A stretch of DNA of 64,000 bases from Klebsiella phage NU-KP11: sequence record OR644643.1. One strand, written 5' to 3'. A model generated the notes under the pieces. The model saw only the letters and a list, made by a program, of their open reading frames with translations. It had not been told where the DNA came from and made no database searches. Positions 1 through 45,868 of this stretch are shown piece after piece. Each line of letters begins with the position of its first letter. The first letter of the stretch is position 1. Both the position numbers and the translations under genes were made by a program.

Positions 1-36
1 GGGCTTTGTTATATTACACACATCGAAACGAAACAG
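1..36 (+). promoter_or_regulatory. Early promoter (5'-truncated by window edge): -10 TATATT at 10-15, conserved leader CATCGAAACGAAACAG at 21-36
   Basis: Same TATATTACACACATCGAAACGAAAC module recurs at least 6 more times upstream of small + strand ORFs. Confidence 0.6.
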
Positions 37-51
37 AGAAAGGAAAACACC

Positions 52-252
52 ATGAACATGAACAAAAATATTGCCGCTGTAGTTGGTTGTGAAGTTTCTA
101 ACGCAGAACGCTATGATAACGGTTTCTCTTTCTGTGTTCCGACTGAACTCGACGCGTACAAAGCCGCTTACAAATACCGCACAATGCATAAGGTAAACGT
201 TACTTACGCGCCTAACATCGAAATGTGGTTGGTTCAGGTTTACAAAGCATGA
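52..252 (+). CDS. hypothetical early protein (66 aa)
   Basis: ORF directly downstream of promoter/leader, SD AAGGA 7 nt before ATG. Confidence 0.6.
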   Translation: MNMNKNIAAVVGCEVSNAERYDNGFSFCVPTELDAYKAAYKYRTMHKVNVTYAPNIEMWLVQVYKA

Positions 253-443
253 ATTTCCACGAACGCAAGGCCGCACGAACTGATTATTATATGCGGTTCG
301 TGTATGGCTGGAAATTAAGGAAATGTGTTGCATGTAACGGATCGGGGCGGTATGATAGCAACCGTTCCCCCAAATGCAGTAGCTGTAATGGGTCTGGTAA
401 AGAATTTTATAAAAGTGAGGTTTCTAATGAGCGTATCAAATGA
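249..443 (+). CDS. small Cys-rich protein with two DnaJ-type zinc-finger repeats (CxxCxGxG x2)
   Basis: ATGA overlap with upstream stop; motifs CVACNGSG and CSSCNGSG. Confidence 0.45.
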   Translation: MNFHERKAARTDYYMRFVYGWKLRKCVACNGSGRYDSNRSPKCSSCNGSGKEFYKSEVSNERIK

Positions 444-825
444 ACTGACTAACTATTTCAATATTCGTTATACCTCTGGTATTGATGACTGGGCTAGGGA
501 TGACGAAATGACCATTAATCATGCATGTGCAGTTCATATGAAACGCTTGCATGAGCAAGGGAAATTGAAAGACCTTAACCTTTACGGCGACATCGGATCC
601 GGTTACTGCTATTCATTCTCTATCAATGATAAAGAGCGCATGACCGTTACTCTCACCAACTTAGTTATTCATGAACCTGGTAATGTCGTTGCCTGGGGGA
701 TCCAGAACGGGCGATATACTGAAAATCACAGCATGAAATTGGCGCTGATGAATCATAAGTTGTTTGGTGGTTGCGTTCCTGATATCTTTACTAACGCACT
801 TCTGCGTATTTTGAAATCTATGTGA
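427..825 (+). CDS. hypothetical protein (~132 aa; track ORF 325..825 trimmed to ATG with SD GTGAGG)
   Basis: ORF track; SD GTGAGG upstream of internal ATG. Confidence 0.45.
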   Translation: MSVSNELTNYFNIRYTSGIDDWARDDEMTINHACAVHMKRLHEQGKLKDLNLYGDIGSGYCYSFSINDKERMTVTLTNLVIHEPGNVVAWGIQNGRYTENHSMKLALMNHKLFGGCVPDIFTNALLRILKSM

Positions 826-832
826 GGCATAT

Positions 833-1408
833 ATGAGTGATGAAATTGTATTTGATGATGCAACATTAAACAAGTTGCATAGTGTCGCCAGCGGAACCTG
901 TACAGCCATGCGGGATAAATGGGCGGCTACAATCACCGATGATAACAAGATCGGGGTTGTTGATGAAATGGGCCGCACGTTTACGGTTACGTATAATTCG
1001 TCTTGGTCTGCTGCTGACAACCAAACAAAATCCAATTGCTTGATGAAATTCATCGACATGATGGATCCACACATGATCAAAAAGCTGGTTGAAGAGATCC
1101 GCCGCCTTAATAAATTTGAAGCGGAATCGAACCACTGGAAAGCAAATCATGCTTGTGAGGTTGAACGTGCTCGCGTACTCAAAGAGCGCCCTGATATGCC
1201 CTTAGAGCGCATCAAAGCATATGACCGTATGGTTGAGTTGGAAGAAGAAAATAAACGCTTACGTGCGCGTATGGAAGTTCTCATGAGTGCGGAAATGATG
1301 CAAAATAACCTAAACATGTTCAGCGCTATGTTGCATTCTATCCAAAGCGATACTAACCAAACAAAAAAATTGTTGTGTGACCGCTTCAACGTACAAGGAT
1401 ATTATTAA
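833..1408 (+). CDS. hypothetical protein (191 aa), coiled-coil C-terminal half
   Basis: ORF track; SD GAGG before ATG. Confidence 0.55.
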   Translation: MSDEIVFDDATLNKLHSVASGTCTAMRDKWAATITDDNKIGVVDEMGRTFTVTYNSSWSAADNQTKSNCLMKFIDMMDPHMIKKLVEEIRRLNKFEAESNHWKANHACEVERARVLKERPDMPLERIKAYDRMVELEEENKRLRARMEVLMSAEMMQNNLNMFSAMLHSIQSDTNQTKKLLCDRFNVQGYY

Positions 1409-1668
1409 TGTCATGGTTCAAAAAACGAGAGTGTAGGCATGAAGCTACTGGCTATCGAGGTGCAAAACCTTACATATTCCAGAAATATAGTCAGGTAGAT
1501 GGGATCGGGCGCATCCATTTACATTTATACGCTCGATGTGACAAATGCGGAAAAGATTTTCCTTACGCTATGATGCACCTGGATCGGGCGCTTACCGAAT
1601 TGTGCCAGTATTCTACGATGCGTTCGGAAATTCAAAGGGTTATAGATAATACCCCAATCAAACGATAA
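1408..1668 (+). CDS. hypothetical Cys/His-containing small protein (86 aa)
   Basis: ATGtca start overlapping upstream stop (TAATG). Confidence 0.5.
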   Translation: MSWFKKRECRHEATGYRGAKPYIFQKYSQVDGIGRIHLHLYARCDKCGKDFPYAMMHLDRALTELCQYSTMRSEIQRVIDNTPIKR

Positions 1669-1684
1669 TTTTTGCAAAAACCCC

Positions 1685-1732
1685 TTGCCTATGGTGAGGG
1701 GTTTTGTTATATTGCATTCATCGAAACAAAAC
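1685..1732 (+). promoter_or_regulatory. Early promoter: -35 TTGCCT (inside terminator-like hairpin AACCCCTTGCC..GGGGTTTT), 17-nt spacer, -10 TATATT 1708-1713, leader CATCGAAACAAAACAG
   Basis: Consensus-like sigma70 elements with extended TGnTATATT; repeated module. Confidence 0.6.
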
Positions 1733-1747
1733 AGAGGAATCATGAAA

Positions 1748-2079
1748 TGACTATTAAAACGAGAAGTGTTGAGGTTCAGAATTTATATGCAGTTCGCACA
1801 ATCCTGGCTGTTTTGATGGGAATCTCTACCGGAAAATCTTCTTATATTGATAGTTTCATATTCTCTCTGTACAACGGGAAAACTCGTTGGGATGGTGATG
1901 TTAGTTGGACTGAACATTTTTGCGACCAGTTGAATGAGATCGCAAACGAAATCAGAAACGGGAAATACTGGAAAACTGGGATCTTCTTTACTCTGATTGC
2001 AGCGGAAGATGTTAAGTTTTGGGATGCGATAGGGGTTCCGATGAAAACATGGAAAAATATTGAACTCGAAGCAAAATAA
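1748..2079 (+). CDS. hypothetical protein (110 aa)
   Basis: First ATG after leader (preceding ATGAAATGA is a 2-codon stub); track ORF 1672..2079 trimmed. Confidence 0.5.
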
Positions 2080-2083
2080 ATGT

Positions 2084-2131
2084 TGCATTAAATCCTGGTT
2101 GTGGTATATTACACACATAGAAACGAAACAG
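2084..2131 (+). promoter_or_regulatory. Early promoter: -35 TTGCAT, -10 TATATT 2105-2110, leader CATAGAAACGAAACAG
   Basis: Repeated module. Confidence 0.55.
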
Positions 2132-2147
2132 ACAAAAGGAAATCATC

Positions 2148-2426
2148 ATGAAACTTGTTCGCGAATCAATCAAACTGGGTAACGAATACAACGGTAAATG
2201 GTACTTTGTCATTTACGACGACAACGCCGAAAAACTGGAAAAAGTTGAAGATGCATTACGTGCTATGGAAACTGGTGCTTCTGTTGGTGGTGAAGTGATG
2301 ACCTGGGAAAACTACTGCGACGGTTGCCCTTGCTATAGTGATGGTTTCGGATCTGGTTTCTGGATTGATATTGAAGATGTTCCGGCGTTCAAAGCCTCCT
2401 GGAAAATCGCTAAGAAAATGGCATAA
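2148..2426 (+). CDS. hypothetical protein (92 aa)
   Basis: ORF after leader, SD AAGGAAA. Confidence 0.6.
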   Translation: MKLVRESIKLGNEYNGKWYFVIYDDNAEKLEKVEDALRAMETGASVGGEVMTWENYCDGCPCYSDGFGSGFWIDIEDVPAFKASWKIAKKMA

Positions 2427-2461
2427 TTAGCACGAATTGCTAAAACTCGATAACCCTGTTC

Positions 2462-2495
2462 TGTTATATTACACACATCGAAACGAAGGAGGATA
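2462..2495 (+). promoter_or_regulatory. Early promoter, extended -10 (cTGtTATATT 2465-2470), leader CATCGAAACGAAGGAGG
   Basis: Repeated module; no good -35. Confidence 0.5.
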
Positions 2496-2497
2496 TC

Positions 2498-2749
2498 ATG
2501 GAAATCATCTACAAAAGCCGGAACTACAAAAAAGAAGATGTTGCAGCAGTTTACATCAAGTACCGGAACGTGAAATGTGAGTACAGCGGGATCTGGGGTT
2601 ACGAAATCGTTGTTGAAGAAGTCAACGCCGACAACAAAACCATTTGCAGTTTCACGGTAAACTCGGATAGTTCTCTGTTCACTACAGAACAGCTTGAAAA
2701 AGCGTATGATCTCCGGAACCAGGCTTTTAACGCGGTACGTATAAAATGA
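2498..2749 (+). CDS. hypothetical protein (83 aa)
   Basis: ORF track; SD GGAGG. Confidence 0.6.
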   Translation: MEIIYKSRNYKKEDVAAVYIKYRNVKCEYSGIWGYEIVVEEVNADNKTICSFTVNSDSSLFTTEQLEKAYDLRNQAFNAVRIK

Positions 2750-2895
2750 ACAAATTCGAACCCTATATGAAATGGCTACGTAATGTTAGCGCCCACTTAG
2801 GGCGCGATATTAAACCCAGCGCACTAGCTCGCGAACTGTACGAACTTGATGCGGATCCGGAAGATGCTGCAACCGACTACGGGAGATTCCTATGA
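2746..2895 (+). CDS. hypothetical small protein (49 aa, not in ORF track)
   Basis: ATGA-coupled to upstream gene; ends ...DADPEDAATDYGRFL. Confidence 0.35.
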   Translation: MNKFEPYMKWLRNVSAHLGRDIKPSALARELYELDADPEDAATDYGRFL

Positions 2896-3089
2896 ACATG
2901 TACGAAATGCTTAAATCAGAAAACAGCGAAACCCAGGGCGAAAAAGATTACAACAAATGGAAACGCTCTGTTCAACATATGCTGGGTTCTTCTGATTATG
3001 ACGAAGATCTGATGTATGCTCTTTACTCGGACGGTTGCACCCCAGAAGATGCAGTGTGTGAATACTACGCACAAGGGGACGAAGAATGA
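2892..3089 (+). CDS. hypothetical small acidic protein (65 aa) with SDGCTPEDA motif
   Basis: ATGA coupling; paralog of next ORF. Confidence 0.45.
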   Translation: MNMYEMLKSENSETQGEKDYNKWKRSVQHMLGSSDYDEDLMYALYSDGCTPEDAVCEYYAQGDEE

Positions 3090-3256
3090 GAGATCAACCA
3101 TTCAGCAAAAAATATCGTTTGTGGGCTGAACATGTTCGAAGTTTACTATCTCCTTTGAATATTTCATACAACGACCATCACTGTACTTTCTTTGGATTTT
3201 TCTCTGACGGTATGACGCCAGAAGAAGCAATAAAATTCTTCATGGAATACAAATAA
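3086..3256 (+). CDS. hypothetical small protein (56 aa, not in track) with SDGMTPEEA motif
   Basis: ATGA coupling; shares SDGxTPE(D/E)A motif with 2892..3089. Confidence 0.4.
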   Translation: MRDQPFSKKYRLWAEHVRSLLSPLNISYNDHHCTFFGFFSDGMTPEEAIKFFMEYK

Positions 3257-3257
3257 C

Positions 3258-3318
3258 TCTTGCGCTGGGTGTAGGATGATGTTATCTTACACCCATACCG
3301 AAACGAAACGGGGATAAA
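3258..3318 (+). promoter_or_regulatory. Early promoter (TGtTATCTT -10 at 3283-3288, leader CATACCGAAACGAAACGG)
   Basis: Repeated module. Confidence 0.5.
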
Positions 3319-3320
3319 AA

Positions 3321-3584
3321 ATGGACATGTTGACTTTTGAACAGTACAAAGCACAGCGCGATCAGTACCAAAAATGGATTGATGAGATCGGCGCAGAGTT
3401 AAGAGCATATCCTAAAAATGAAATGGGTATGACTATTGAATCGATCCGTATGTCTCCGGCATACAAAGAAAAGAAAAATCTTTTCAATCGTGTATTTTCA
3501 AATCTCCGTGCCTTGAACGGCGAATACATCAAGGTGTACAAAAAAGAACTGGCTGACGAACGCAAACAACGGTGGGTAAAATGA
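3321..3584 (+). CDS. hypothetical protein (87 aa)
   Basis: ORF after leader. Confidence 0.55.
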   Translation: MDMLTFEQYKAQRDQYQKWIDEIGAELRAYPKNEMGMTIESIRMSPAYKEKKNLFNRVFSNLRALNGEYIKVYKKELADERKQRWVK

Positions 3585-3787
3585 TGGAACACGTAATCAA
3601 AACAGAGATTGACAAACGCGTATTTTTGGAAAAGAATAAAACGGTAACGCTGTTGAACTACTCCACTGAAAATTGTTCTAGTGAATTTTGGCGCGTTAAC
3701 ATCGATAGCAAAGGGCAACACCAATCAATACCGTTTGATAATGAAAGTCTCGCTCGCGCTGTCTTCCAATCCCATGTTAGATTTTGA
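3581..3787 (+). CDS. hypothetical protein (68 aa)
   Basis: ATGA coupling to upstream stop. Confidence 0.4.
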   Translation: MMEHVIKTEIDKRVFLEKNKTVTLLNYSTENCSSEFWRVNIDSKGQHQSIPFDNESLARAVFQSHVRF

Positions 3788-3798
3788 GAATTATATTA

Positions 3799-4943
3799 TG
3801 AATAACGCACAAACTGTTCTGAAAGCTCCTACCCTGTTCATCTATCAAGATGGTGATATCCGTTACGCTCGCTCTAAGTGGTATAACTACAATTTCAACG
3901 TTAAAACTGGTGAGTTTGCTCGCTGGGGAACATCGTTTGAAACTGATCCTACCTATGCCCCATTCCCCGAAATTCTCGATATCGAGATCACAACTAAATG
4001 TAATGGCCCCGCTGGTAAACTTTGCGGTTTCTGCTACAAGTCTAATAACCCTAACGGCTTCAATATGGATCTTGATACATTCAAATCTATCATTGATAAA
4101 ATGCCCTGGTTAACACAATGCGCCCTCGGTGCTGATGCACAGGGACAAACAAACCCTGATATGTTTGATATGATGGCCTATGCGCGTTCTAAAGGCATTG
4201 TACCAAACCTTACCATTGCTGATGTATCAAAAGACGTTGCAGCGCGTTTAGCGGCTGTTGCTGGGGCTGTTGCGGTATCAGTATACAAACATGCTGGATT
4301 CGATGTAGCGTTTAACTCAGTGGCTAATCTGGCAGAAGCCGGACAACAGCAAATCAACCTTCATTTCATGGTTAGCTCTAAAACCTATGATGACGCGTTT
4401 AACGTGGTTGATGCTGTAAAGAATGATCCGCGCTTGAAACAAGTTAACGCGATCGTATTCCTGGGTCTGAAACAAAAAGGTCGTGGGAAGAACTGGGATA
4501 CCGTTACACGCGAGCAGTATAAAGCGCTGGTAGATTATTGCCTTGAATCCGGTGTAGGGTTCGGTTTTGATTCCTGTTCCGCTCCGGCCTTTGTAGAGGC
4601 TATGGAAGGGCATGAAAATTTTGAACAATACAAACAGTACGCGGAAGATTGCGAAGCAACTATGTTTAGCTCGTACATCAACGAGAAGGGCGAATTCTTC
4701 CCTTGTTCCTTTACTGAACGTTGGGTCGAGGGTGGATGGTCAGAAGGGCTTAACGTCCTGGAAGCCAGTGATTTTATCAAAGATATCTGGGAACATCCGA
4801 AAACTAAGAAATTCCGTCAGGAATTGATCGGTAACAAGGATCATAACGGTTGCCGTAACTGTCCGGCTTATGCGGTATGTGGTAAAGATATGCGCGTACA
4901 CAAAGCCCCTGAATTGGATGTATACTCGGTGGAATTGAAATGA
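3799..4943 (+). CDS. radical-SAM/SPASM-like protein with non-canonical Cx7CxxC cluster (ITTKCNGPAGKLCGFCY) and C-terminal CxxCx5C (CRNCPAYAVC)
   Basis: Motif layout read in translation; track ORF 3681..4943 trimmed to MNNAQTVL start. Confidence 0.4.
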
Positions 4944-5290
4944 ACCCAATTAATCCTTTAGTGGTTGACATTCCCGAAAAACCGCGTACACTGGAATCGT
5001 TGATCGAGAAGTATGAATATTCTCTGGCTACTCCGGCAACAGCAGAAATGGCAATGGCGGAAAGGCAAAGCATTATCTATGAATGTGATGCGAAGGGTTT
5101 CCATACCGATGAAGATATGGCGATGATTGATTATCTATGGAAAGTTCGCGGCGCGGTAGTCGATTTGATTCTTTCAAACCAACTGATGCAAAACGAAACA
5201 CGCCGCATACAAGACCGTATACGCTCTCAGTTGTATGGTATGAGCACAGAACAGAAGGAAAGAATGTATGAAATGCACAGCCGCCGTTGA
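4940..5290 (+). CDS. hypothetical protein (116 aa)
   Basis: ATGA coupling. Confidence 0.5.
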   Translation: MNPINPLVVDIPEKPRTLESLIEKYEYSLATPATAEMAMAERQSIIYECDAKGFHTDEDMAMIDYLWKVRGAVVDLILSNQLMQNETRRIQDRIRSQLYGMSTEQKERMYEMHSRR

Positions 5291-5621
5291 TGAATTGATG
5301 AGTCACTACTACAAACGCAAAGAAGATTCTCGTATCAAAGAATCAAAGTCAATAGAAATTATTGAACGATATGCTATGAAGTTAAGCGAGCAAGAATTCA
5401 CGCCAAAGGCGATCAATAGTCTGATGATCCTAAAACTTTTGATTGCTTCCGGTGATGATATGCCGTATGATGTAGATAGTGCAGAGGGATTCCAAAAGGC
5501 GTATCGTTCATGGGGAGTGATTTACTCCCGCTCACTTGGTTCTTATGACTCTGTTATGTGGAACCTGATGCACCTTGATAAGCTGATCTGGGAAGTGCTT
5601 GAAGAAGAGGGATTTGTATGA
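5268..5621 (+). CDS. hypothetical protein (117 aa; start uncertain)
   Basis: ORF track. Confidence 0.4.
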   Translation: MKCTAAVDELMSHYYKRKEDSRIKESKSIEIIERYAMKLSEQEFTPKAINSLMILKLLIASGDDMPYDVDSAEGFQKAYRSWGVIYSRSLGSYDSVMWNLMHLDKLIWEVLEEEGFV

Positions 5622-5793
5622 TTTTTACACATACCGGAATGGTTGAAACGATAACAGCAGGTAAGAAGCGTATACCCTTGATGAAATCGGGGAAATACTG
5701 GAAGAGTGAAGAACATAAGTTTGATCATAATGGTAACTCATTTGGTTCTTCTTATGCTAAACTATACCTGAAAACCATTAAACCAATTTAAAG
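5620..5793 (+). CDS. hypothetical small protein (57 aa, not in track)
   Basis: GTATGA coupling with upstream stop. Confidence 0.3.
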
Positions 5794-5804
5794 GAACTGA
5801 TCTC

Positions 5805-6059
5805 ATGTTTGAACAATCTTTTGATGAAATGAAAGCCTCTGTTTTTGTTGGAAATACCGAAGCTGGAATGGCGTTTAGATATGGGATCGCAACAATAAAT
5901 CCAGGTTACAATGAAATCACAAGCAACGATGCATTAGAACTTATTCGTAAAATGGATCGTTTGCAAGTAAACGTACCTAAGCGCCTCCATAAAAAGTGGC
6001 AAGCGTTGAGGGGTTCTTTTGTTATGGCATTTGGGCCTGATATGCTGGAAAGACTTTAA
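5805..6059 (+). CDS. hypothetical protein (84 aa)
   Basis: ORF track. Confidence 0.5.
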   Translation: MFEQSFDEMKASVFVGNTEAGMAFRYGIATINPGYNEITSNDALELIRKMDRLQVNVPKRLHKKWQALRGSFVMAFGPDMLERL

Positions 6060-6068
6060 GGAAACTCT

Positions 6069-6500
6069 ATGTTAACTAATGAACTTAGCGGGGCTATTCG
6101 TACCATTGAAGGGATCCTTCATGATTTGCGTATGGGTAACGAAATTTGTGTAAGCGACATTGAAGCAAATCTGGTTGAATGGCGCGGCGCTCTGTATGGG
6201 GCAACACAAGGAAAAGATCCGTTGTTTACGGAATATGATATGTATACAGTAACCATTGACAATAAAACTTATCGTTTTCAGTGGCCTGATGATGCATACG
6301 ATCATATCAAAACATTTTACAGTACTGGAGGTGCTCTTTTTGCTACCAGTATTGGTGTTAACGAATTGCCTTTTCATCCTGATGGATTGAGACCTTCCGA
6401 TCATTTAGGATGTACAACTGTGTTACTGGGTATGTGCGGTAACTATTCTGATCCCGTGTACTGGATTGAAGCCAGTAAAACCAACTTAAAAAGAGTTTAA
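6069..6500 (+). CDS. hypothetical protein (143 aa)
   Basis: ORF track. Confidence 0.55.
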   Translation: MLTNELSGAIRTIEGILHDLRMGNEICVSDIEANLVEWRGALYGATQGKDPLFTEYDMYTVTIDNKTYRFQWPDDAYDHIKTFYSTGGALFATSIGVNELPFHPDGLRPSDHLGCTTVLLGMCGNYSDPVYWIEASKTNLKRV

Positions 6501-6501
6501 C

Positions 6502-6762
6502 ATGAAATATATTATTGCTTTGGTGTTAGTCGTCATTGTCGTTTTAGCACAAGCCGGATGCACCGATGAGAAAGAAGCCGAACGTATTCTGACTGCTAAC
6601 GGGTTTACCGATATCACGTACACAGGCCACGCCTGGTTTGCATGTGATGAGAAAGACACCTACGCAACAGGGTTCGTTGCTAAAAGCCCTACAGGGGTGA
6701 AAATTGAAGGTGCTGTGTGCTCTGGACTATTTTTCAAAAATAGCACAATTCGCTTCAAATAA
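6502..6762 (+). CDS. putative lipoprotein (signal peptide + lipobox LAQAGC)
   Basis: N-terminal hydrophobic h-region followed by A-G-C. Confidence 0.55.
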   Translation: MKYIIALVLVVIVVLAQAGCTDEKEAERILTANGFTDITYTGHAWFACDEKDTYATGFVAKSPTGVKIEGAVCSGLFFKNSTIRFK

Positions 6763-6765
6763 GTG

Positions 6766-6826
6766 TTGACGTAGATACGGGGTTATGAGACTATAGCCCT
6801 GTCGAAACGAAACGCACTTTAGGAGA
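6766..6826 (+). promoter_or_regulatory. Early promoter: -35 TTGACG, -10 region ACTATAG, leader GTCGAAACGAAACGC
   Basis: Repeated module. Confidence 0.5.
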
Positions 6827-6831
6827 GAAAA

Positions 6832-7095
6832 ATGGACATCATGAACGAAATCTTAGCTCACATCGAAGCCAACAAAGAAGCAATGAAAGCTAAAGAAGGT
6901 TGGGTTGTTGTTGACGATTGCTTCAATCCTAATATCTGGACTCCGGTTTTCATCGATGAGAACGGTAACGAAGCCCACGGGTTCTATGATGCTGCAATCT
7001 TCGATACTGCCGAAGAAGCATGTGATTTCTGGGCCTACGTTAGCGGTGATGCTCCATTTACAAAATACGGTGTGTGCCGTTGCTGTGAACTTTAA
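6832..7095 (+). CDS. hypothetical acidic protein (87 aa)
   Basis: ORF track. Confidence 0.6.
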   Translation: MDIMNEILAHIEANKEAMKAKEGWVVVDDCFNPNIWTPVFIDENGNEAHGFYDAAIFDTAEEACDFWAYVSGDAPFTKYGVCRCCEL

Positions 7096-7101
7096 TTAAC
7101 T

Positions 7102-7126
7102 AGCCCCGAAAGGGGCTTTTTTGTAG
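7102..7126 (+). terminator. Rho-independent terminator AGCCCCGAAAGGGGCT + T6
   Basis: GC hairpin with GAAA loop followed by T-run. Confidence 0.75.
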
Positions 7127-7134
7127 GTAAAATT

Positions 7135-7458
7135 ATGATTACGAAAGCACAAAGGATCATTAACCATTTAGAAACAGGGTTCCCGTACCAGGGAGATTTA
7201 ACCCGCGATATTATTGATATCCTTTCTGAACACGACGGCATGAAGGCCGAAATCGAAGAACTGTTACATCCTGATGCTAACGTGTTTGCTTCATTGATGA
7301 GCGATGTAGTGAACATTGACGCCGATGAACTTGGATGCATTGAAACAACAAATGATGGTGATAAAACCATACTGAAACAGGCGTGTGAACGGATAGACAA
7401 CCTTCACGATCGTTTGTTCACTTTAACTTTTCCGTCAAAAAACGATAAACCTTGTTGA
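7135..7458 (+). CDS. hypothetical protein (107 aa)
   Basis: ORF track; start MIT... Confidence 0.55.
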   Translation: MITKAQRIINHLETGFPYQGDLTRDIIDILSEHDGMKAEIEELLHPDANVFASLMSDVVNIDADELGCIETTNDGDKTILKQACERIDNLHDRLFTLTFPSKNDKPC

Positions 7459-11773: not shown

Positions 11774-11775
11774 CA

Positions 11776-11840
11776 AAAAGCCCTTGACTTCGGTCGGGGG
11801 CTTTTTTATTATGAGTGCATCTAATTGAGAGGAATACATT
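11776..11840 (+). promoter_or_regulatory. Terminator/promoter module: hairpin AAAAGCCCTTGACTTCGGTCGGGGGCTTTTTT containing -35 TTGACT, -10 TATTAT, leader AATTGAGAGGAATACATTATG
   Basis: Repeated at 18790, 28481 and (minus) 39395. Confidence 0.6.
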
Positions 11841-18785: not shown

Positions 18786-18789
18786 AACA

Positions 18790-18853
18790 AAGCCCTTGAC
18801 TTAGGTCAGGGGCTTTTGCTATATTGGGCCTACAGAAACAAAAGAGGCTTATT
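18790..18853 (+). promoter_or_regulatory. Terminator/promoter module AAAGCCCTTGACTTAGGTCAGGGGCTTTTGCTATATT + leader CAGAAACAAAAGAGG
   Basis: repeat of 11776 module. Confidence 0.6.
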
Positions 18854-19123
18854 ATGAAACATCCCTATTGTCTTGTTACCCGTCCGATTTGTCCAGGTGG
18901 GTTGCCTGTTGCCTGTTGGCAGTTGATTGAAAAGGGTGATGCGTTTTTAAACAAACGCGGTGAGAATGTTTTCGTTTACGGTGTTAACTCAATCGATAAT
19001 GAAACTATGGTTATCACCGATGAGAAAACAAATGAAAAATATACGTTGACATCCGAACACGATTGTCGTAATTTTAACGTATATTGGAAATCTGATGAAG
19101 AATTTGAAACTGTGAGGAAATGA
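18854..19123 (+). CDS. hypothetical protein (89 aa)
   Basis: trimmed to ATG after leader. Confidence 0.5.
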   Translation: MKHPYCLVTRPICPGGLPVACWQLIEKGDAFLNKRGENVFVYGVNSIDNETMVITDEKTNEKYTLTSEHDCRNFNVYWKSDEEFETVRK

Positions 19124-21841: not shown

Positions 21842-22749
21842 AAATAATTGACCTTTGCGCTGGTGTTGGTGGCGTGAGGCTCGGTTTCGATAAGGCATTC
21901 GGCGGGGTCGAATGCCTTTTAACGTCTGAAATCGATAAACATGCACAACAAACATATGCTGATAACTGGGGTGATGAAAATATTCAGGGTGATATATTCG
22001 CCATTGATGAAAACGATGTACCCGATCACGATATCCTGTTGGCGGGATTTCCTTGTCAGGCGTTCAGTAAAGCAGGGTTAAAACAGGGCATGTTAGATCC
22101 TCGCGGTACTATCATCTTTGAAATACTCCGCATTATACGGGCTAAAAAGCCCTCTGTGCTGTTCTTTGAGAATGTTCCCCAGCTATTAACCCATGACAAG
22201 GGAAACACGTTTAAAACCATCTACAGGCTGTTACAGGACGAAGGATACGATATCCATTATCAGGTAATGAATACAAAAGACTTTGGATTGCCTCAACGAA
22301 GAGAGCGCGTGTTTATTGTCTGCTTTCGCGATCCGGTGTTCTTTAGTTTTCCTGTTCCTCCACGTACCCCAACAAGGGTCGGTGACATTCTCGAACCGGA
22401 TAATGATCAATACACCATATCAGATCGTGCCTGGAAGGGCTTTAGAGAGCGTAAAAAACGAAACAAGGCAAACGGTAAGGGGTTTGGCTATCAGGCCGTT
22501 ACAGTTGATTCTGTGTGTACTGGGACGATAACAGCCCAATACTATAAGGATGGTGTTCAATGTCTGGTATTGCAGGAAGGTAAGAACCCTCGAATGTTAT
22601 CACCTCGCGAGTGTTTCCGGTTGCAAGGATTTCCGGATTCATTCAAGATGCATAAGAGCAAAACACAGGCGTACAAACAAGCGGGTAACTCTGTATCTGT
22701 TCCGGTGATCGAAGCAATTGCAAAACAAATCAAAAAAGCGCTTGCATAG
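21838..22749 (+). CDS. DNA (cytosine-5)-methyltransferase
   Basis: Motif I DLCAGVGG, motif IV GFPCQAFS, ENVP motif. Confidence 0.85.
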   Translation: MKIIDLCAGVGGVRLGFDKAFGGVECLLTSEIDKHAQQTYADNWGDENIQGDIFAIDENDVPDHDILLAGFPCQAFSKAGLKQGMLDPRGTIIFEILRIIRAKKPSVLFFENVPQLLTHDKGNTFKTIYRLLQDEGYDIHYQVMNTKDFGLPQRRERVFIVCFRDPVFFSFPVPPRTPTRVGDILEPDNDQYTISDRAWKGFRERKKRNKANGKGFGYQAVTVDSVCTGTITAQYYKDGVQCLVLQEGKNPRMLSPRECFRLQGFPDSFKMHKSKTQAYKQAGNSVSVPVIEAIAKQIKKALA

Positions 22750-22756
22750 GATAACA

Positions 22757-22807
22757 AAGAATAGTATAGTGACCTTGTTGAAACGAAACTGACAAAAGGA
22801 ACATACC
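22757..22807 (+). promoter_or_regulatory. Early promoter -35 TTGCAT, -10 TATAGT, leader TTGAAACGAAACTGAC
   Basis: repeated module. Confidence 0.5.
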
Positions 22808-23086
22808 ATGACTTTTAATGACCTGTTTAACGGATGTACTGGTGCTGGCGCGAAATTCAATCTTCTGAAAGATTACCCGCTGGGTTCTAATCCTGGTTAT
22901 GTGATGGTTGAAGTTCGCAACGGTGAATACTATAACGTGTTCATGTGGGATCGCTCTTTCTCTTACTGCTGGTTCGGTGCGAAATATAAACCAGATTACA
23001 TTCTGGAGCAAATCGAAACAGTGAAAGCTAAAAATCCTGAACTGTATGCATTCGCAGAGTCTATTCGTGGTGTGTTCGGGCATTAA
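22808..23086 (+). CDS. hypothetical protein (92 aa)
   Basis: ORF track. Confidence 0.55.
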   Translation: MTFNDLFNGCTGAGAKFNLLKDYPLGSNPGYVMVEVRNGEYYNVFMWDRSFSYCWFGAKYKPDYILEQIETVKAKNPELYAFAESIRGVFGH

Positions 23087-28476: not shown

Positions 28477-28480
28477 TGAA

Positions 28481-28548
28481 AAAGCCCTTGACTTTGGTCG
28501 GGGCTTTTTGCTATATTGGTTCTATCGAAAACAATGAGGAATACATTA
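28481..28548 (+). promoter_or_regulatory. Terminator/promoter module AAAAGCCCTTGACTTTGGTCGGGGCTTTTTGCTATATT + leader TCTATCGAAAACAATGAGGAATACATTATG
   Basis: repeat. Confidence 0.6.
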
Positions 28549-32164: not shown

Positions 32165-33238
32165 TTAGTAATTTGTATCAAAAATAGAATCCTGACGCAT
32201 ATCGATCAGTTCCATAAATTGAATTTCGACCTCAAGTGAGATCGGGGTATTTGGTGATTCTCTTAATGTATTTACAATATTATCAATAGAACGACCAAAG
32301 CGAACACTGGTAATACCTGCTGGCCCAAAGGTTGAATGAGGTAAACGCAAGGAATCCCCAGACTGGAAATCACGAATAAACCAGACAGGAGGCGATTTAA
32401 TAACCTCTACGTTTGAAATGAAGTCAACCACATCATTACCCAGACTATTATCAAAATCTGACGCTGTTACTGGGTTACTGGAAGGGCTAATTGCGTTCGC
32501 GGTTTTAGCACCCAGAACACCGTAATATTGTTTAACCAATGCAGCAACCTCTTTAGCAGTACCGCCAGAAGTTGTACCATAACCCAGAACAGTAAACAGA
32601 TAGTAGATTTTAATCAGTTCCAGCAAATCATTACGGCTTTCGATCACGAATGTATTGTAATACATCTTTGTTCGCTTGTCAGAACCCTGGAAAGCGGCTT
32701 TAGTACCAACATCAAGGGCTTCTCTTCGGTCTGCCATAATACCGCCTGAAACGGATTCTACAGCGCCCCATACCATGTTTGAAACAACACGGCTCAACCC
32801 TTTGGTTAAGAAACTATCGTTTGCATCTTGATAGCGGTGGCTGTTTACTTCGTTATCGTTCAGGCTTCGCGGTAGCAGGATCTGGCAAACAGGTTCCATA
32901 GTACCAATAGAACTATTCAACACTTGTTTGTACTTAACATTACCCGTCGCAGATGATAGTATTTGTTTTGGGTTCTGTGCTGCCTGACGTAATGAACGAT
33001 AGTTGTCTTTACTACCAACACCATTAAAATCATATGCAGTGAACAGAAGGCCGTTATTATACAGACTCGAAGCATTATAAGCATTATCGATACCTGCTGC
33101 ACGTTGGGCCGGAAATTCGGCGGTAACGATAGTTTGCTTTAATACTGATTCTGTGATTGCGGCACCCCCAGAGGGGATACCGCGATTTTTAATATTTTTG
33201 AGAGTGTTTATACTGTCATCAATAATAGAAAACTTCAT
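32165..33238 (-). CDS. baseplate tail-tube cap gp48-like (by synteny)
   Basis: adjacent to gp54-like, 357 aa vs 364 in T4. Confidence 0.4.
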   Translation of the reverse strand: MKFSIIDDSINTLKNIKNRGIPSGGAAITESVLKQTIVTAEFPAQRAAGIDNAYNASSLYNNGLLFTAYDFNGVGSKDNYRSLRQAAQNPKQILSSATGNVKYKQVLNSSIGTMEPVCQILLPRSLNDNEVNSHRYQDANDSFLTKGLSRVVSNMVWGAVESVSGGIMADRREALDVGTKAAFQGSDKRTKMYYNTFVIESRNDLLELIKIYYLFTVLGYGTTSGGTAKEVAALVKQYYGVLGAKTANAISPSSNPVTASDFDNSLGNDVVDFISNVEVIKSPPVWFIRDFQSGDSLRLPHSTFGPAGITSVRFGRSIDNIVNTLRESPNTPISLEVEIQFMELIDMRQDSIFDTNY

Positions 33239-37811: not shown

Positions 37812-38075
37812 TTAGTAAGATCTGATTCTTAACTTAGTGATAGTTACCAGGTTTTTAGCGTGGGCTTTACATGCCGCTGGGAGACTGCTTTTCTCCGCGC
37901 TATGCTGGCGCATCAACCAGTTAAACATCCCTTCCAGACTACGGTTACTGTAGTGAACTACGTTTTCAACAACCAGTACGATATCACCGTCACTGTCCAT
38001 CAACAGGATCATGCGTCCACCCATTGCATTAGAAATAATCTGGTCATCGTGGAAATCTTTGATTGTTCTAGCCAT
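37812..38075 (-). CDS. hypothetical protein (87 aa; MARTIKDF...)
   Basis: trimmed to ATG following minus-strand early promoter/leader. Confidence 0.5.
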   Translation of the reverse strand: MARTIKDFHDDQIISNAMGGRMILLMDSDGDIVLVVENVVHYSNRSLEGMFNWLMRQHSAEKSSLPAACKAHAKNLVTITKLRIRSY

Positions 38076-38088
38076 TTTCGTAGTTCCT

Positions 38089-38140
38089 TTTGTCTGTTTC
38101 GTTTCGATGAACACACTATACCAAACAAGAACAAGATAAT
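38089..38140 (-). promoter_or_regulatory. Early-class promoter on minus strand (TATAGTGTGTTCATCGAAACGAAACAG)
   Basis: reverse complement of + 38092-38128 matches module. Confidence 0.55.
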
Positions 38141-38318
38141 TTTAGCAAAAAGTGCTATTAATGGAGAATTTCAGCAGTCATCACGATCCATATAGAAAGA
38201 GGAAACCCGTGAATGAATACCCACAACCCAAAATCATCACGTTTATTGTAAATCAAAGCAGTTATGAATATCGAAGCCGCCCAAAGAGCAGTAAACAGAA
38301 GATAATCACTGAGTGTGA

Positions 38319-38510: not shown

Positions 38511-38701
38511 TTACGGTATTTGATTGATTGGTTCATTGCAGAGATAATGCCAGATTCTTGCATGTTAGAAGCGCAATAGACTTCGGCAACCTGGATTTCG
38601 CGGTCATAGAGGTAAACACTACCACGAAAAGTTTTCAAGTGAGCGAATCCGCAATCTTTAACCAGGTTAAGGAATTCTGCTTTCTTCATCATGTGAGCCA
38701 T
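38498..38701 (-). CDS. hypothetical protein (67 aa; MAHMMKKAEF...)
   Basis: trimmed to ATG after minus-strand promoter/leader. Confidence 0.45.
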   Translation of the reverse strand: MAHMMKKAEFLNLVKDCGFAHLKTFRGSVYLYDREIQVAEVYCASNMQESGIISAMNQSIKYRKWMG

Positions 38702-38745
38702 TTTGTTTATCTCCGTGTTTCGTTTCAATGAACACACTATACAAA
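38702..38745 (-). promoter_or_regulatory. Early-class promoter on minus strand (TATAGTGTGTTCATTGAAACGAAACACGG)
   Basis: module. Confidence 0.55.
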
Positions 38746-38789
38746 AAAGCCCCCTGCATTGCAAGAGGCTTCTTTAACAAAAAGTGCTA

Positions 38790-39359
38790 TTAAACGGCTT
38801 CTGTTTTCACTTCTAAACCAAGTTTAGCAAGCGCTTCAACTGCCATGAAATGATTTTCAAACGGAACTTCAACAGAAATTCGAATTGTTGTCGGTGTTGG
38901 ATCAGTCAGATATTTTGTCATTTGACGATCTTTCTGGTTTTTGCAAAGGATATCCGCCAGCGCTTCTACCGCGTCAGAATTGAAATCGTATGCATAATCA
39001 AGTCGGGATTGCACATAACGCATGTTGCGTTGAACATAATCCGGATATTCTTCAACGATCGGGGTTGCAACAGCCGCTTCGCTCATGCATTCAAAGTTAG
39101 GTTTTCGGAAAATACCAACACACTTATCATCGGATTCGTTATATACGAAAATAAATGCGTTGCTGTTCATGATATGGACGCACTGATACACTGGATGTCG
39201 GTAAATCACTTTCAGTACTTTCTTCACAGAAGGTTTGATAATGTGATTGGTTTCGAAGCGGGAACCTTCGGTTACTGTCAGCAGAGATTTTACTTCGTCG
39301 ATATGTTTACCGGACAGGTTTGCCATAAGGGTTTTGTGTTTCTGATAACTACTAGTCAT
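38790..39359 (-). CDS. hypothetical protein (189 aa)
   Basis: trimmed to ATG after module leader. Confidence 0.5.
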   Translation of the reverse strand: MTSSYQKHKTLMANLSGKHIDEVKSLLTVTEGSRFETNHIIKPSVKKVLKVIYRHPVYQCVHIMNSNAFIFVYNESDDKCVGIFRKPNFECMSEAAVATPIVEEYPDYVQRNMRYVQSRLDYAYDFNSDAVEALADILCKNQKDRQMTKYLTDPTPTTIRISVEVPFENHFMAVEALAKLGLEVKTEAV

Positions 39360-39440
39360 AATATATTCTCTCAGTGATTTACGTTTCGATATGCAATATA
39401 ACAAAGCCCCCGACCGGAGTCAAGGGCTTTTTATTAAAAT
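39360..39440 (-). promoter_or_regulatory. Terminator/promoter module on minus strand (AAAGCCCTTGACTCCGGTCGGGGGCTTTGTTATATTGCATATCGAAACG); terminates ligase gene
   Basis: reverse complement matches + strand modules. Confidence 0.6.
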
Positions 39441-43472: not shown

Positions 43473-43548
43473 AATGTCATCCTCATAAAAGTGTTTTCTT
43501 GTCTACGGGATTAACTATAATGAAATGTGCGAAGGGAGTCAACAACTT
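43473..43548 (-). promoter_or_regulatory. sigma70-like promoter (minus): -35 TTGACT, 17 nt, -10 TATAGT
   Basis: rc of 43520-43548. Confidence 0.5.
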
Positions 43549-45791: not shown

Positions 45792-45868
45792 TGGTGGCCC
45801 CTCCCGTGACTTGAACCGGGAACCTAACCATTATGAGTGATTAGCTCTACCTATTGAGCTAAGGGGCC
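45792..45868 (-). tRNA. tRNA-Met/Ile2 (anticodon CAU), 77 nt with encoded CCA
   Basis: Acceptor GGCCCCT/AGGGGCC, D-arm GCTC-AATAGGTA-GAGC, anticodon loop CTCATAA, T-loop TTCAAGT; T-stem needs a 1-nt A bulge. Confidence 0.6.

Follow-up and report, generated by a model that had tools for sequence, protein, structure and literature searches.

A 64,000-nt stretch of the genome of Klebsiella phage NU-KP11 (OR644643.1; hereafter the window) carries eleven copies, and one degenerate relative, of a short early-promoter module in which a −10 hexamer is followed at an almost constant distance by a conserved box with the core GAAAC. On balance, and with a little better than even confidence, we read this box as the selected initial transcribed sequence (ITS) of a horizontally mobile early promoter, doubling as a recombination patch. 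By sequence similarity the window is DNA of a Slopekvirus phage. Its bases 1–7000, where small genes with hypothetical annotations follow one another, share 99% identity with Klebsiella phage pR7_1 (Straboviridae, Slopekvirus; position 32331 there aligns with the first base of the window) and match 177 phage records, mainly of T4-like phages of Klebsiella, Enterobacter, Cronobacter and Citrobacter, with phiEap-3, PMBT1 and RB43 relatives among them.

An earlier note on this DNA, made from the letters alone, had listed ten copies of the module on both strands. All ten are present, and the decamer GAAACGAAAC occurs seven times exactly versus 0.37 expected, a count reached in none of 100 shuffles of the window; the total in the window is nonetheless eleven, with the degenerate relative in addition. 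The invariance attributed to the downstream box holds for the core GAAAC, which all 11 copies have, and fails for the exact decamer, which only seven have. Aligned over the eleven copies, GAAAC is as invariant as the A and the last T of the −10. The spacing originally proposed, TATATT-N6-box, gave no match even when three mismatches were allowed, whereas TATATT-N5-CATCGAAACGAAAC gave six matches with up to three mismatches versus 0.01 expected in the window. The box starts 8 nt past the −10 hexamer in nine of the eleven copies, the exceptions being gaps of 10 nt (box at 3299) and 6 nt (box at 39388). A −10 is found in every copy, extended by TG at −15/−14 in nine, and a recognisable −35 (TTGNNN, 17–18 bp) in six of the ten copies for which the window includes the −35 region. 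The complete pR7_1 genome contains 15 promoter-linked copies, and its lone further exact decamer is antisense within a late gene. A generic scan of positions 1–7200 for sigma-70 promoters and terminators showed no enrichment over shuffles and recognised only copy 2, being too blunt for extended −10 promoters.

Downstream of the box the geometry is loose. The box ends 8–20 nt before the ATG across the eleven copies and 0–10 nt before the core of the Shine-Dalgarno (SD) sequence, not 15–25 nt as had been stated; in copy 4 it merges into the SD (CGAAACGAAGGAGG). Since its distance to the −10 is constant and its distance to the SD and ATG variable, the box appears tied to the promoter or transcription start and not to the ribosome-binding site, and the step from conservation of the transcribed part to an RNA-level function, as it had been argued, is left unsupported.

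The description of the module as a promoter plus leader stood up, in that each is a sigma-70-type early promoter and a conserved segment follows just past the inferred start. In most copies CAT (YCAT) closes the 8-nt interval between −10 and box. In E. coli the modal start lies 7 nt after the −10, with a pyrimidine preferred at −1 and a purine at +1. The A of CAT is the likely +1 of the modules, by which count the box would span +3 to +13 and its GAAAC +4 to +8. The deposited O-L feature of phi80 ends one base 5' of the A in CAT, and in phage T7 the positions annotated as E. coli promoters A1 (498) and A3 (750) fall on the A of ccAtcgagaggg and on that of cacAtgaaacgacag, respectively; the A1 RNA begins AUCGA and the A3 RNA AUGAAACGA. 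We agree with the earlier note that the motif is not a T4 early, MotA-middle or late promoter element. A T4 MotA middle promoter, with a Mot box (a/t)(a/t)(a/t)TGCTTtA 11–13 bp 5' of the −10, was considered separately and rejected, the closest look-alike (TTTGCTAAA) ending 20 nt before the −10; RB43 lacks both middle promoters and motA (PMC3486835; PMC1524935).

The transcribed region is reported to change promoter strength or output more than 10-fold (Kammerer, as cited in PMC5961368). Positions near +6 matter most: YG at +5/+6 and +6/+7 slows escape, and GG or GA near +6 and a high purine content favour it (PMC5961368). It is this literature, together with the placement of GAAAC on +4 to +8, that leads us to prefer an ITS. 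In the mechanism that we propose, a PeSL-type cassette would present a −35 in the loop of a terminator hairpin, or a marbox-like site in its place, followed by the CAT start, an unstructured leader, an SD and a small open reading frame (ORF). The box, CGAAAC(GAAAC), would be the ITS, at about +3 to +13 provided that the A of CAT is +1, and box and CAT start would together set initiation and promoter escape by the host RNA polymerase, an effect demonstrated for the T5 N25 transcribed regions and suggested by T7 A1 and A3, whose starts are near-identical. The stretch from the −10 to the SD would in addition serve as a homology patch for the gain, loss and swap of promoter-plus-gene cassettes, both within a lineage and between phage families.

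The same segment recurs in unrelated phages. Two scans of IMG/VR gave at least 108 unique contexts of the 14-mer CATCGAAACGAAAC, and the figures that follow cover the matches listed. The best −10 lies exactly 5 nt before CAT in 69 of the 108; 24 others, mainly GC-rich coding sequence, have no −10 and are plausibly chance. The promoter contexts include the PL of phi80/HK225-type lambdoid phages, T1-like phages, T4-like phages (RB43, RB49) and assorted phages of 60–180 kb or of high GC content, e.g. cccTGTAGACTaaccaCATCGAAACGAAACgaaccATG, and several of them have only the 14-mer and its spacing in common. At the phi80/HK225-type PL the operators are highly diverse and the leader is constant, running into a boxA-like GCTTTTTAACAA. 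As a separate observation, phi80 (positions 360–480) and the loci L012–L170 show many unrelated operator and −10 variants (immunity types) fused to one leader that begins at CATCGAAACGAAAC, and the homology boundary is the transcription start. The phi80-type leader was found in 126 of 5426 complete E. coli genomes, DH5alpha and DH10B included.

One genome per species was scanned for 185,579 species, yielding 117 stretches with −10, N5 and the 14-mer, versus roughly 70 expected by chance for 17 specified bases by our own estimate. These comprised prophage PL, phage contigs, coding coincidences (e.g. a recurrent gPRYCPSIETK-type frame) and a few chromosomal promoters of Vibrio, Pragia and Rahnella lying before unremarkable genes. 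The scan rules out the box as a general feature of host promoters; judged from these distributions, it is a phage feature.

One cassette is common to two phage families. The Frd.1-like 92-aa gene behind copy 3 (2148–2426, +) has homologues with 73–76% amino acid identity in T1-like contigs of ~50 kb, where they are preceded by aaATAGCACTTTTTGTTAAAagccccgcgtgggcttttgcTATTATctattCATCGAAACGAAGCAGACAAAGAGG, which is the copy-3 cassette. Between the T4-like and T1-like versions the box differs by one base (CATCGAAACGAAAC versus CATCGAAACGAAGC), the −10 is TATATT versus TATTAT, and the discriminator ACACA versus CTATT or TACTT. More distant T4-like phages have the Frd.1-like gene behind a T4-type promoter, with no box. 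The comparison indicates transfer of a gene together with its promoter between Straboviridae and Drexlerviridae.

By their make-up, the modules are members of the known PeSL kind of portable promoter cassette: an extended −10 promoter, often with a terminator hairpin, a leader, an SD and a small ORF (66–189 aa, annotated as hypothetical). Hairpins accompany copies 1 (where it is seen in pR7_1), 2, 7, 10 and 11 and the degenerate copy, and are absent from copies 3, 4, 5, 6, 8 and 9. They are G/C-rich and followed by a T-run, with the −35 in the loop; one example, AAAACCCCTTGCCTATGGTGAGGGGTTTTGTTATATT, was scored as a terminator by the scan. PeSLs are described in RB49/phi1, T4/PST and KVP40/nt-1 as composites of terminator and early promoter whose 3' end holds SD and ATG, and are proposed, with inverse-PCR (mini-circle) evidence, to mediate cassette shuffling, the crossovers having been mapped to the stretch from −10 to SD/ATG (PMC2839356; PMC4122927). 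The type phage of PeSLs, RB49, carries CATAATacacccatCGAAACGAAAC and TAATATacccccatCGAAACAAAGG, and in both the gap is again 8 nt.

Absence of the box from homologous promoters of relatives had been named beforehand as one refuting observation; the box is present at such promoters in KP15, phiEap-3 and RB43. In KP15, a further relative (L291) and RB43, one hybrid module joins the copy-2 hairpin to the copy-3 leader, and the 110-aa ORF (1747–2079) lying between these copies in the window is missing. RB43 also lacks module 11 with its 189-aa gene (38790–39359), the end of the upstream gene being joined straight to one module. The junctions of these hybrid or absent cassettes in KP15 and RB43 fall within the −10/box segment. 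In phiEap-3 an additional 54-aa ORF and a different promoter precede the gene at 2498, and homology restarts at CATCGAAAC (window 2475). RB43, Cronobacter phage GAP161 and several Enterobacter phages share a 38-nt module at 100% identity. Synteny between the window and RB43 is interrupted by 15 gaps whose sides differ by at least 200 bp; five of them contain a box module and a sixth, from 28472, starts at the degenerate copy. Copies 7 and 8 each lie in a synteny gap against RB43. The modules make up ~1.2% of the window versus 5 of these 15 length-changing gaps, an overlap that is inflated by intergenic bias and is supportive only. The junctions themselves are seen by comparison; recombination is the mechanism that we would propose for them. 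A different event was observed at window 3326–3334 (+), where a 57-aa ORF found directly behind module 5 in phiEap-3, KpCCP1 and PSKm4DII has been deleted, the site being marked by an 8-bp direct repeat ATGTTGAC; from the sequence, this loss is a microhomology deletion and not module-mediated.

Part of the modules carry a second upstream element. Three of the eleven window copies are preceded by ATAGCAC-N5-TG[CT]TAAA, namely copies 9 and 10 (exact) and 4 (one mismatch). Using the marbox consensus AYnGCACnnWnnRYYAAAY (PMC3709825), two exact 18-mers AYnGCACnnWnnRYYAAA were found in the window versus 0.12 expected (38158–38141 and 38790–38773, forward orientation), and four in pR7_1, all forward, 5' of box promoters and 20 or 31 nt before the −10. 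All module-linked copies in the window, in pR7_1 and among the IMG/VR contexts listed are forward. The gap to the −10 is 20 nt in copies 4 and 9, neither of which has a usable −35, with the site centred at about −40.5; in copy 10 it is 31 nt, outside class II spacing. Class II marboxes are forward, centred at −36 to −55 and overlap the −35 (PMC12052159), and the RamA site on micF lies at about −41 (PMC8811837). E. coli micF reads ACAGCACTGAATGTCAAA, 20 nt, TAGAAT and 7 nt to +1; like this class II marbox, the sites of copies 4 and 9 end 20 nt before the −10. The marO marbox is identical at 15 of 20 positions to window 38158–38139. Phage T1 contains 15 exact marbox matches versus 0.08 expected, most of them forward, and for at least 11 of the 15 a −10 comes 20 nt downstream, with nnnnCAT and a box-like CGACAACGAA or AGAAACGAAA behind it.

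If real, these sites would make a subset of the modules putative class II marbox promoters, with MarA, SoxS, Rob and RamA as candidate activators. The element has dyad symmetry as well (TAGCA-N5-TGCTA), with far less degeneracy than host marboxes show; a dimeric regulator other than these four proteins is possible at it. The literature search returned nothing tying marboxes to phage promoters and nothing relevant on the box sequence, the ATAGCAC element or Slopekvirus transcription start sites. A paper on KP15 and KP27 gives 17 and 41 promoters predicted by MEME, shown only up to the −10, and the box is not mentioned in it.

Several points weigh against a selected ITS acting as recombination patch. 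Only a subset of the early-type promoters of this phage has the box, which is missing or decayed in the others. Strong host promoters do without it, leaving an argument from the best ITS for RNA polymerase incomplete on its own. The CG steps at +3/+4 and +8/+9 (C3G4, C8G9) are YG, reported as unfavourable at some positions by Heyduk. Finally, intergenic regions diverge faster in any case, so that the overlap of modules with synteny gaps is overestimated. Two side observations concern promoters of the same phage. A PeSL-like hairpin promoter at window 11775–11830 (+; aaaaagcccTTGACTtcggtcgggggctttttTATTAT) keeps the CAT start and has no box (CTAATTGAGAGG); the box is thus not obligatory for a hairpin-type PeSL-like promoter. 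A second leader family, cgTAGACAAGAnAC, lies 8 nt past the −10 of other sigma-70-like promoters, at window 43494–43507 (−) and at pR7_1 109984 (+), 154767 (−) and 76384 (−), which suggests several leader classes in the phage.

The box could instead act as RNA, the 5'-terminal AUCGAAAC(GAAAC) of immediate-early transcripts being a linear motif that a conserved factor of host or phage reads; it might protect from 5'-end-dependent decay, be a site for a nuclease or regulator, or serve as a ribosome standby site. We regard this as unlikely. It is consistent with the fixed position of the box at the extreme 5' end, its absence from host promoters and its conservation across unrelated enterobacterial phages, which suggests a conserved partner. 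The leaders are purine-rich, short and almost free of U, and their predicted 5' ends are unstructured, folding less than their own shuffles (z +0.8 to +1.95; 158–199 of 200 shuffles fold at least as well). On the other hand, position at the 5' end is inseparable by sequence alone from a role as ITS, no known RNA-binding-protein motif was matched (the ARN frame of Hfq fails, and RNase E prefers U-containing sites), and structure, Rfam family and GGAG are all missing. Moreover, at the phi80-type PL the 14-mer lies ~400 nt from the first start codon, that of gene N; translation is therefore not a function common to all contexts, and the role in translation control put forward in the earlier note is unlikely.

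Other RNA-level or DNA-level candidates were discarded. A structured RNA element is ruled out by leaders less folded than shuffles. A covariance search with Rfam at gathering score gave no family match in the window other than a tRNA and, at phi80-type loci, nothing at the leaders and only RyeA/RyeB. Targets of RegB and RegA misfit in sequence and spacing; GGAG is the target of RegB and the box does not contain it. Hfq (ARN)n sites, IHF, OmpR-type repeats, the NAD-capping promoter consensus and mimicry of the crRNA 5' tag were set aside for mismatch of motif or host. A broader proposal, which we hold to be doubtful, is that AUCGAAAC(GAAAC) is a 5'-terminal tag on immediate-early transcripts, spread by horizontal transfer and selection among T4-like, T1-like and phi80-like phages and in part T7 A3, and read as RNA by a host component such as the 5'-end decay machinery or the ribosome/S1, a subset of cassettes also recruiting Rob, MarA, SoxS or RamA through a class II marbox.

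A box without function, alike in all copies only through common ancestry and gene conversion of cassettes that were recently duplicated or swapped, is a still poorer prospect. The junctions inside modules, the whole cassette common to T1-like phages and the 38-nt module identical within the RB43/Slopekvirus clade are what such a history would produce. But GAAAC and its 8-nt spacing persist where −35, spacer, discriminator and SD are unrelated, as in copies 6 and 8, module 4 of phiEap-3 and the GC-rich phages, and in the cassette shared by T4-like and T1-like phages the box differs by a single base where −10 and discriminator have both changed. The flanks of copy 6 are unrelated to those of the other copies. 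Least probable, and to our minds improbable outright, is a DNA operator in which a repressor or roadblock protein would bind the GAAAC-GAAAC direct repeat and shut off early transcription: the 5-bp repeat, its position typical of roadblock operators and the restriction of the box to a subset of early promoters fit, but T4-like, T1-like and phi80-like phages and T7 A3 share the sequence with no known common regulator, and many copies can do without the second repeat (GAAACGAAGG, GAAACGTAAA, GAAACAAAAG).

The coordinates of the modules are collected in Table 1.

Table 1. Promoter modules of the window and associated genes; minus-strand elements are numbered in the direction of transcription.
Feature	Positions	Strand	Upstream element	−10	Box	Start codon and remarks
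Copy 1	1–54	+		extended TGtTATATT, hexamer 10–15	CGAAACGAAAC 24–34	Cut by window edge; upstream hairpin aaaaaagcccttgcattcgtgcaagggcttt visible in pR7_1; inferred +1 A22
Gene of copy 1	52–252	+				ATG 52; 66-aa ORF
Copy 2	1677–1749	+	terminator-like hairpin 1677–1705 with −35 TTGCCT 1685–1690	TATATT 1708–1713	CGAAACAAAAC 1722–1732	ATG 1747
110-aa ORF	1747–2079	+				Between copies 2 and 3
Copy 3	2082–2150	+		TATATT 2105–2110 (TGg extension)	AGAAACGAAAC 2119–2129	ATG 2148 (Frd.1-like, 92 aa)
Copy 4	2427–2500	+	marbox-like TTAGCACGAATTGCTAAA 2427–2444 (1 mismatch), then 20 nt	TATATT 2465–2470	CGAAACGAAGG 2479–2489	ATG 2498
Copy 5	3260–3323	+	−35 TTGCGC 3260–3265	TATCTT 3283–3288	CGAAACGAAAC 3299–3309	ATG 3321; 10-nt gap
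Copy 6	6766–6834	+	−35 TTGACG 6766–6771	GACTAT 6789–6794 (TG extension)	CGAAACGAAAC 6803–6813	ATG 6832
Copy 7	18789–18856	+	hairpin; −35 TTGACT 18796–18801	TATATT 18820–18825	AGAAACAAAAG 18834–18844	ATG 18854; absent from the list of the earlier note
Copy 8	22741–22810	+	−35 region cTTGCA	TATAGT 22765–22770	TGAAACGAAAC 22779–22789	ATG 22808
Degenerate relative (12th)	28479–28545	+	hairpin and TTGACT	TATATT	CGAAAACAATG	−10 followed by ggttctat, then CGAAAACAATGAGG
Copy 9	38073–38158	−	exact marbox-like ATAGCACTTTTTGCTAAA 38158–38141, then 20 nt	TATAGT 38120–38115 (TGg extension)	CGAAACGAAAC 38106–38096	ATG 38075
Copy 10	38699–38790	−	exact marbox-like ATAGCACTTTTTGTTAAA 38790–38773; hairpin with −35 TTGCAA 38764–38759	TATAGT 38741–38736	TGAAACGAAAC 38727–38717	ATG 38701
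Copy 11	39357–39432	−	hairpin with −35 TTGACT 39423–39418	TATATT 39400–39395	CGAAACGTAAA 39388–39378	ATG 39359; 6-nt gap

Other features of the window lie apart from the modules. Amid the small ORFs stands a large one (3798–4943, +), annotated in relatives as a radical SAM/Fe-S oxidoreductase protein; directly 3' of it (window 4943–4965), phiEap-3 and RB43 have an additional ~300–350 bp, with a 98-aa ORF in phiEap-3. The tRNA gene matched by Rfam is at 45795–45868 (−), and the homologous position is annotated as tRNA-Met in pR7_1 and as tRNA-Ile in RB43.

These observations extend the picture of PeSL cassette shuffling to Slopekvirus, a genus used in Klebsiella phage therapy, and supply concrete junctions of gene gain and loss, including a cassette common to T1-like siphoviruses. 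Neither the conservation of the transcript start across phage families nor the marbox-like sites are described in the literature found. A transcript start of 13–14 nt kept at base-pair-exact spacing across families offers a testable handle on early promoter and leader function, and the box cassette a ready-made strong promoter and 5' untranslated region part for engineering. Should the marbox-like sites prove real, these Klebsiella and E. coli phages would have their early expression coupled to Rob, MarA, SoxS and RamA, which are up-regulated in multidrug-resistant isolates; if the 5'-terminal tag were real, early phage messages would be handled differently from host messages.

In comparison with known systems, the modules are closest in layout to PeSLs as these are described in Arbiol 2010 (PMC2839356) and Comeau 2014 (PMC4122927): multi-copy intergenic elements with a hairpin, a sigma-70 promoter and an SD/ATG before small ORFans in plastic regions, with indels between close relatives whose junctions fall inside the element. 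Unlike the PeSLs described, about half of the Slopekvirus copies have no hairpin and some have a marbox-like site replacing the −35; Slopekvirus is outside the analysis of those papers and, as far as their text was read, neither a conserved box between −10 and SD nor the spread of a defined one across families appears in them. The phi80/HK225-type PL has the identical 14-mer CATCGAAACGAAAC 5 nt past its −10, but differs in its long structured leader with boxA, with gene N ~400 nt downstream, and in being a single orthologous locus per prophage. With T7 A1/A3 and T5 N25 the modules share the CAT start, and for these promoters the transcribed region is reported to set promoter clearance and strength in vivo (Kammerer 1986, as cited in PMC5961368). 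Sequence identity to them is only partial, and, unlike the Slopekvirus modules, the T7 and T5 promoters do not occur as multi-copy recombination cassettes.

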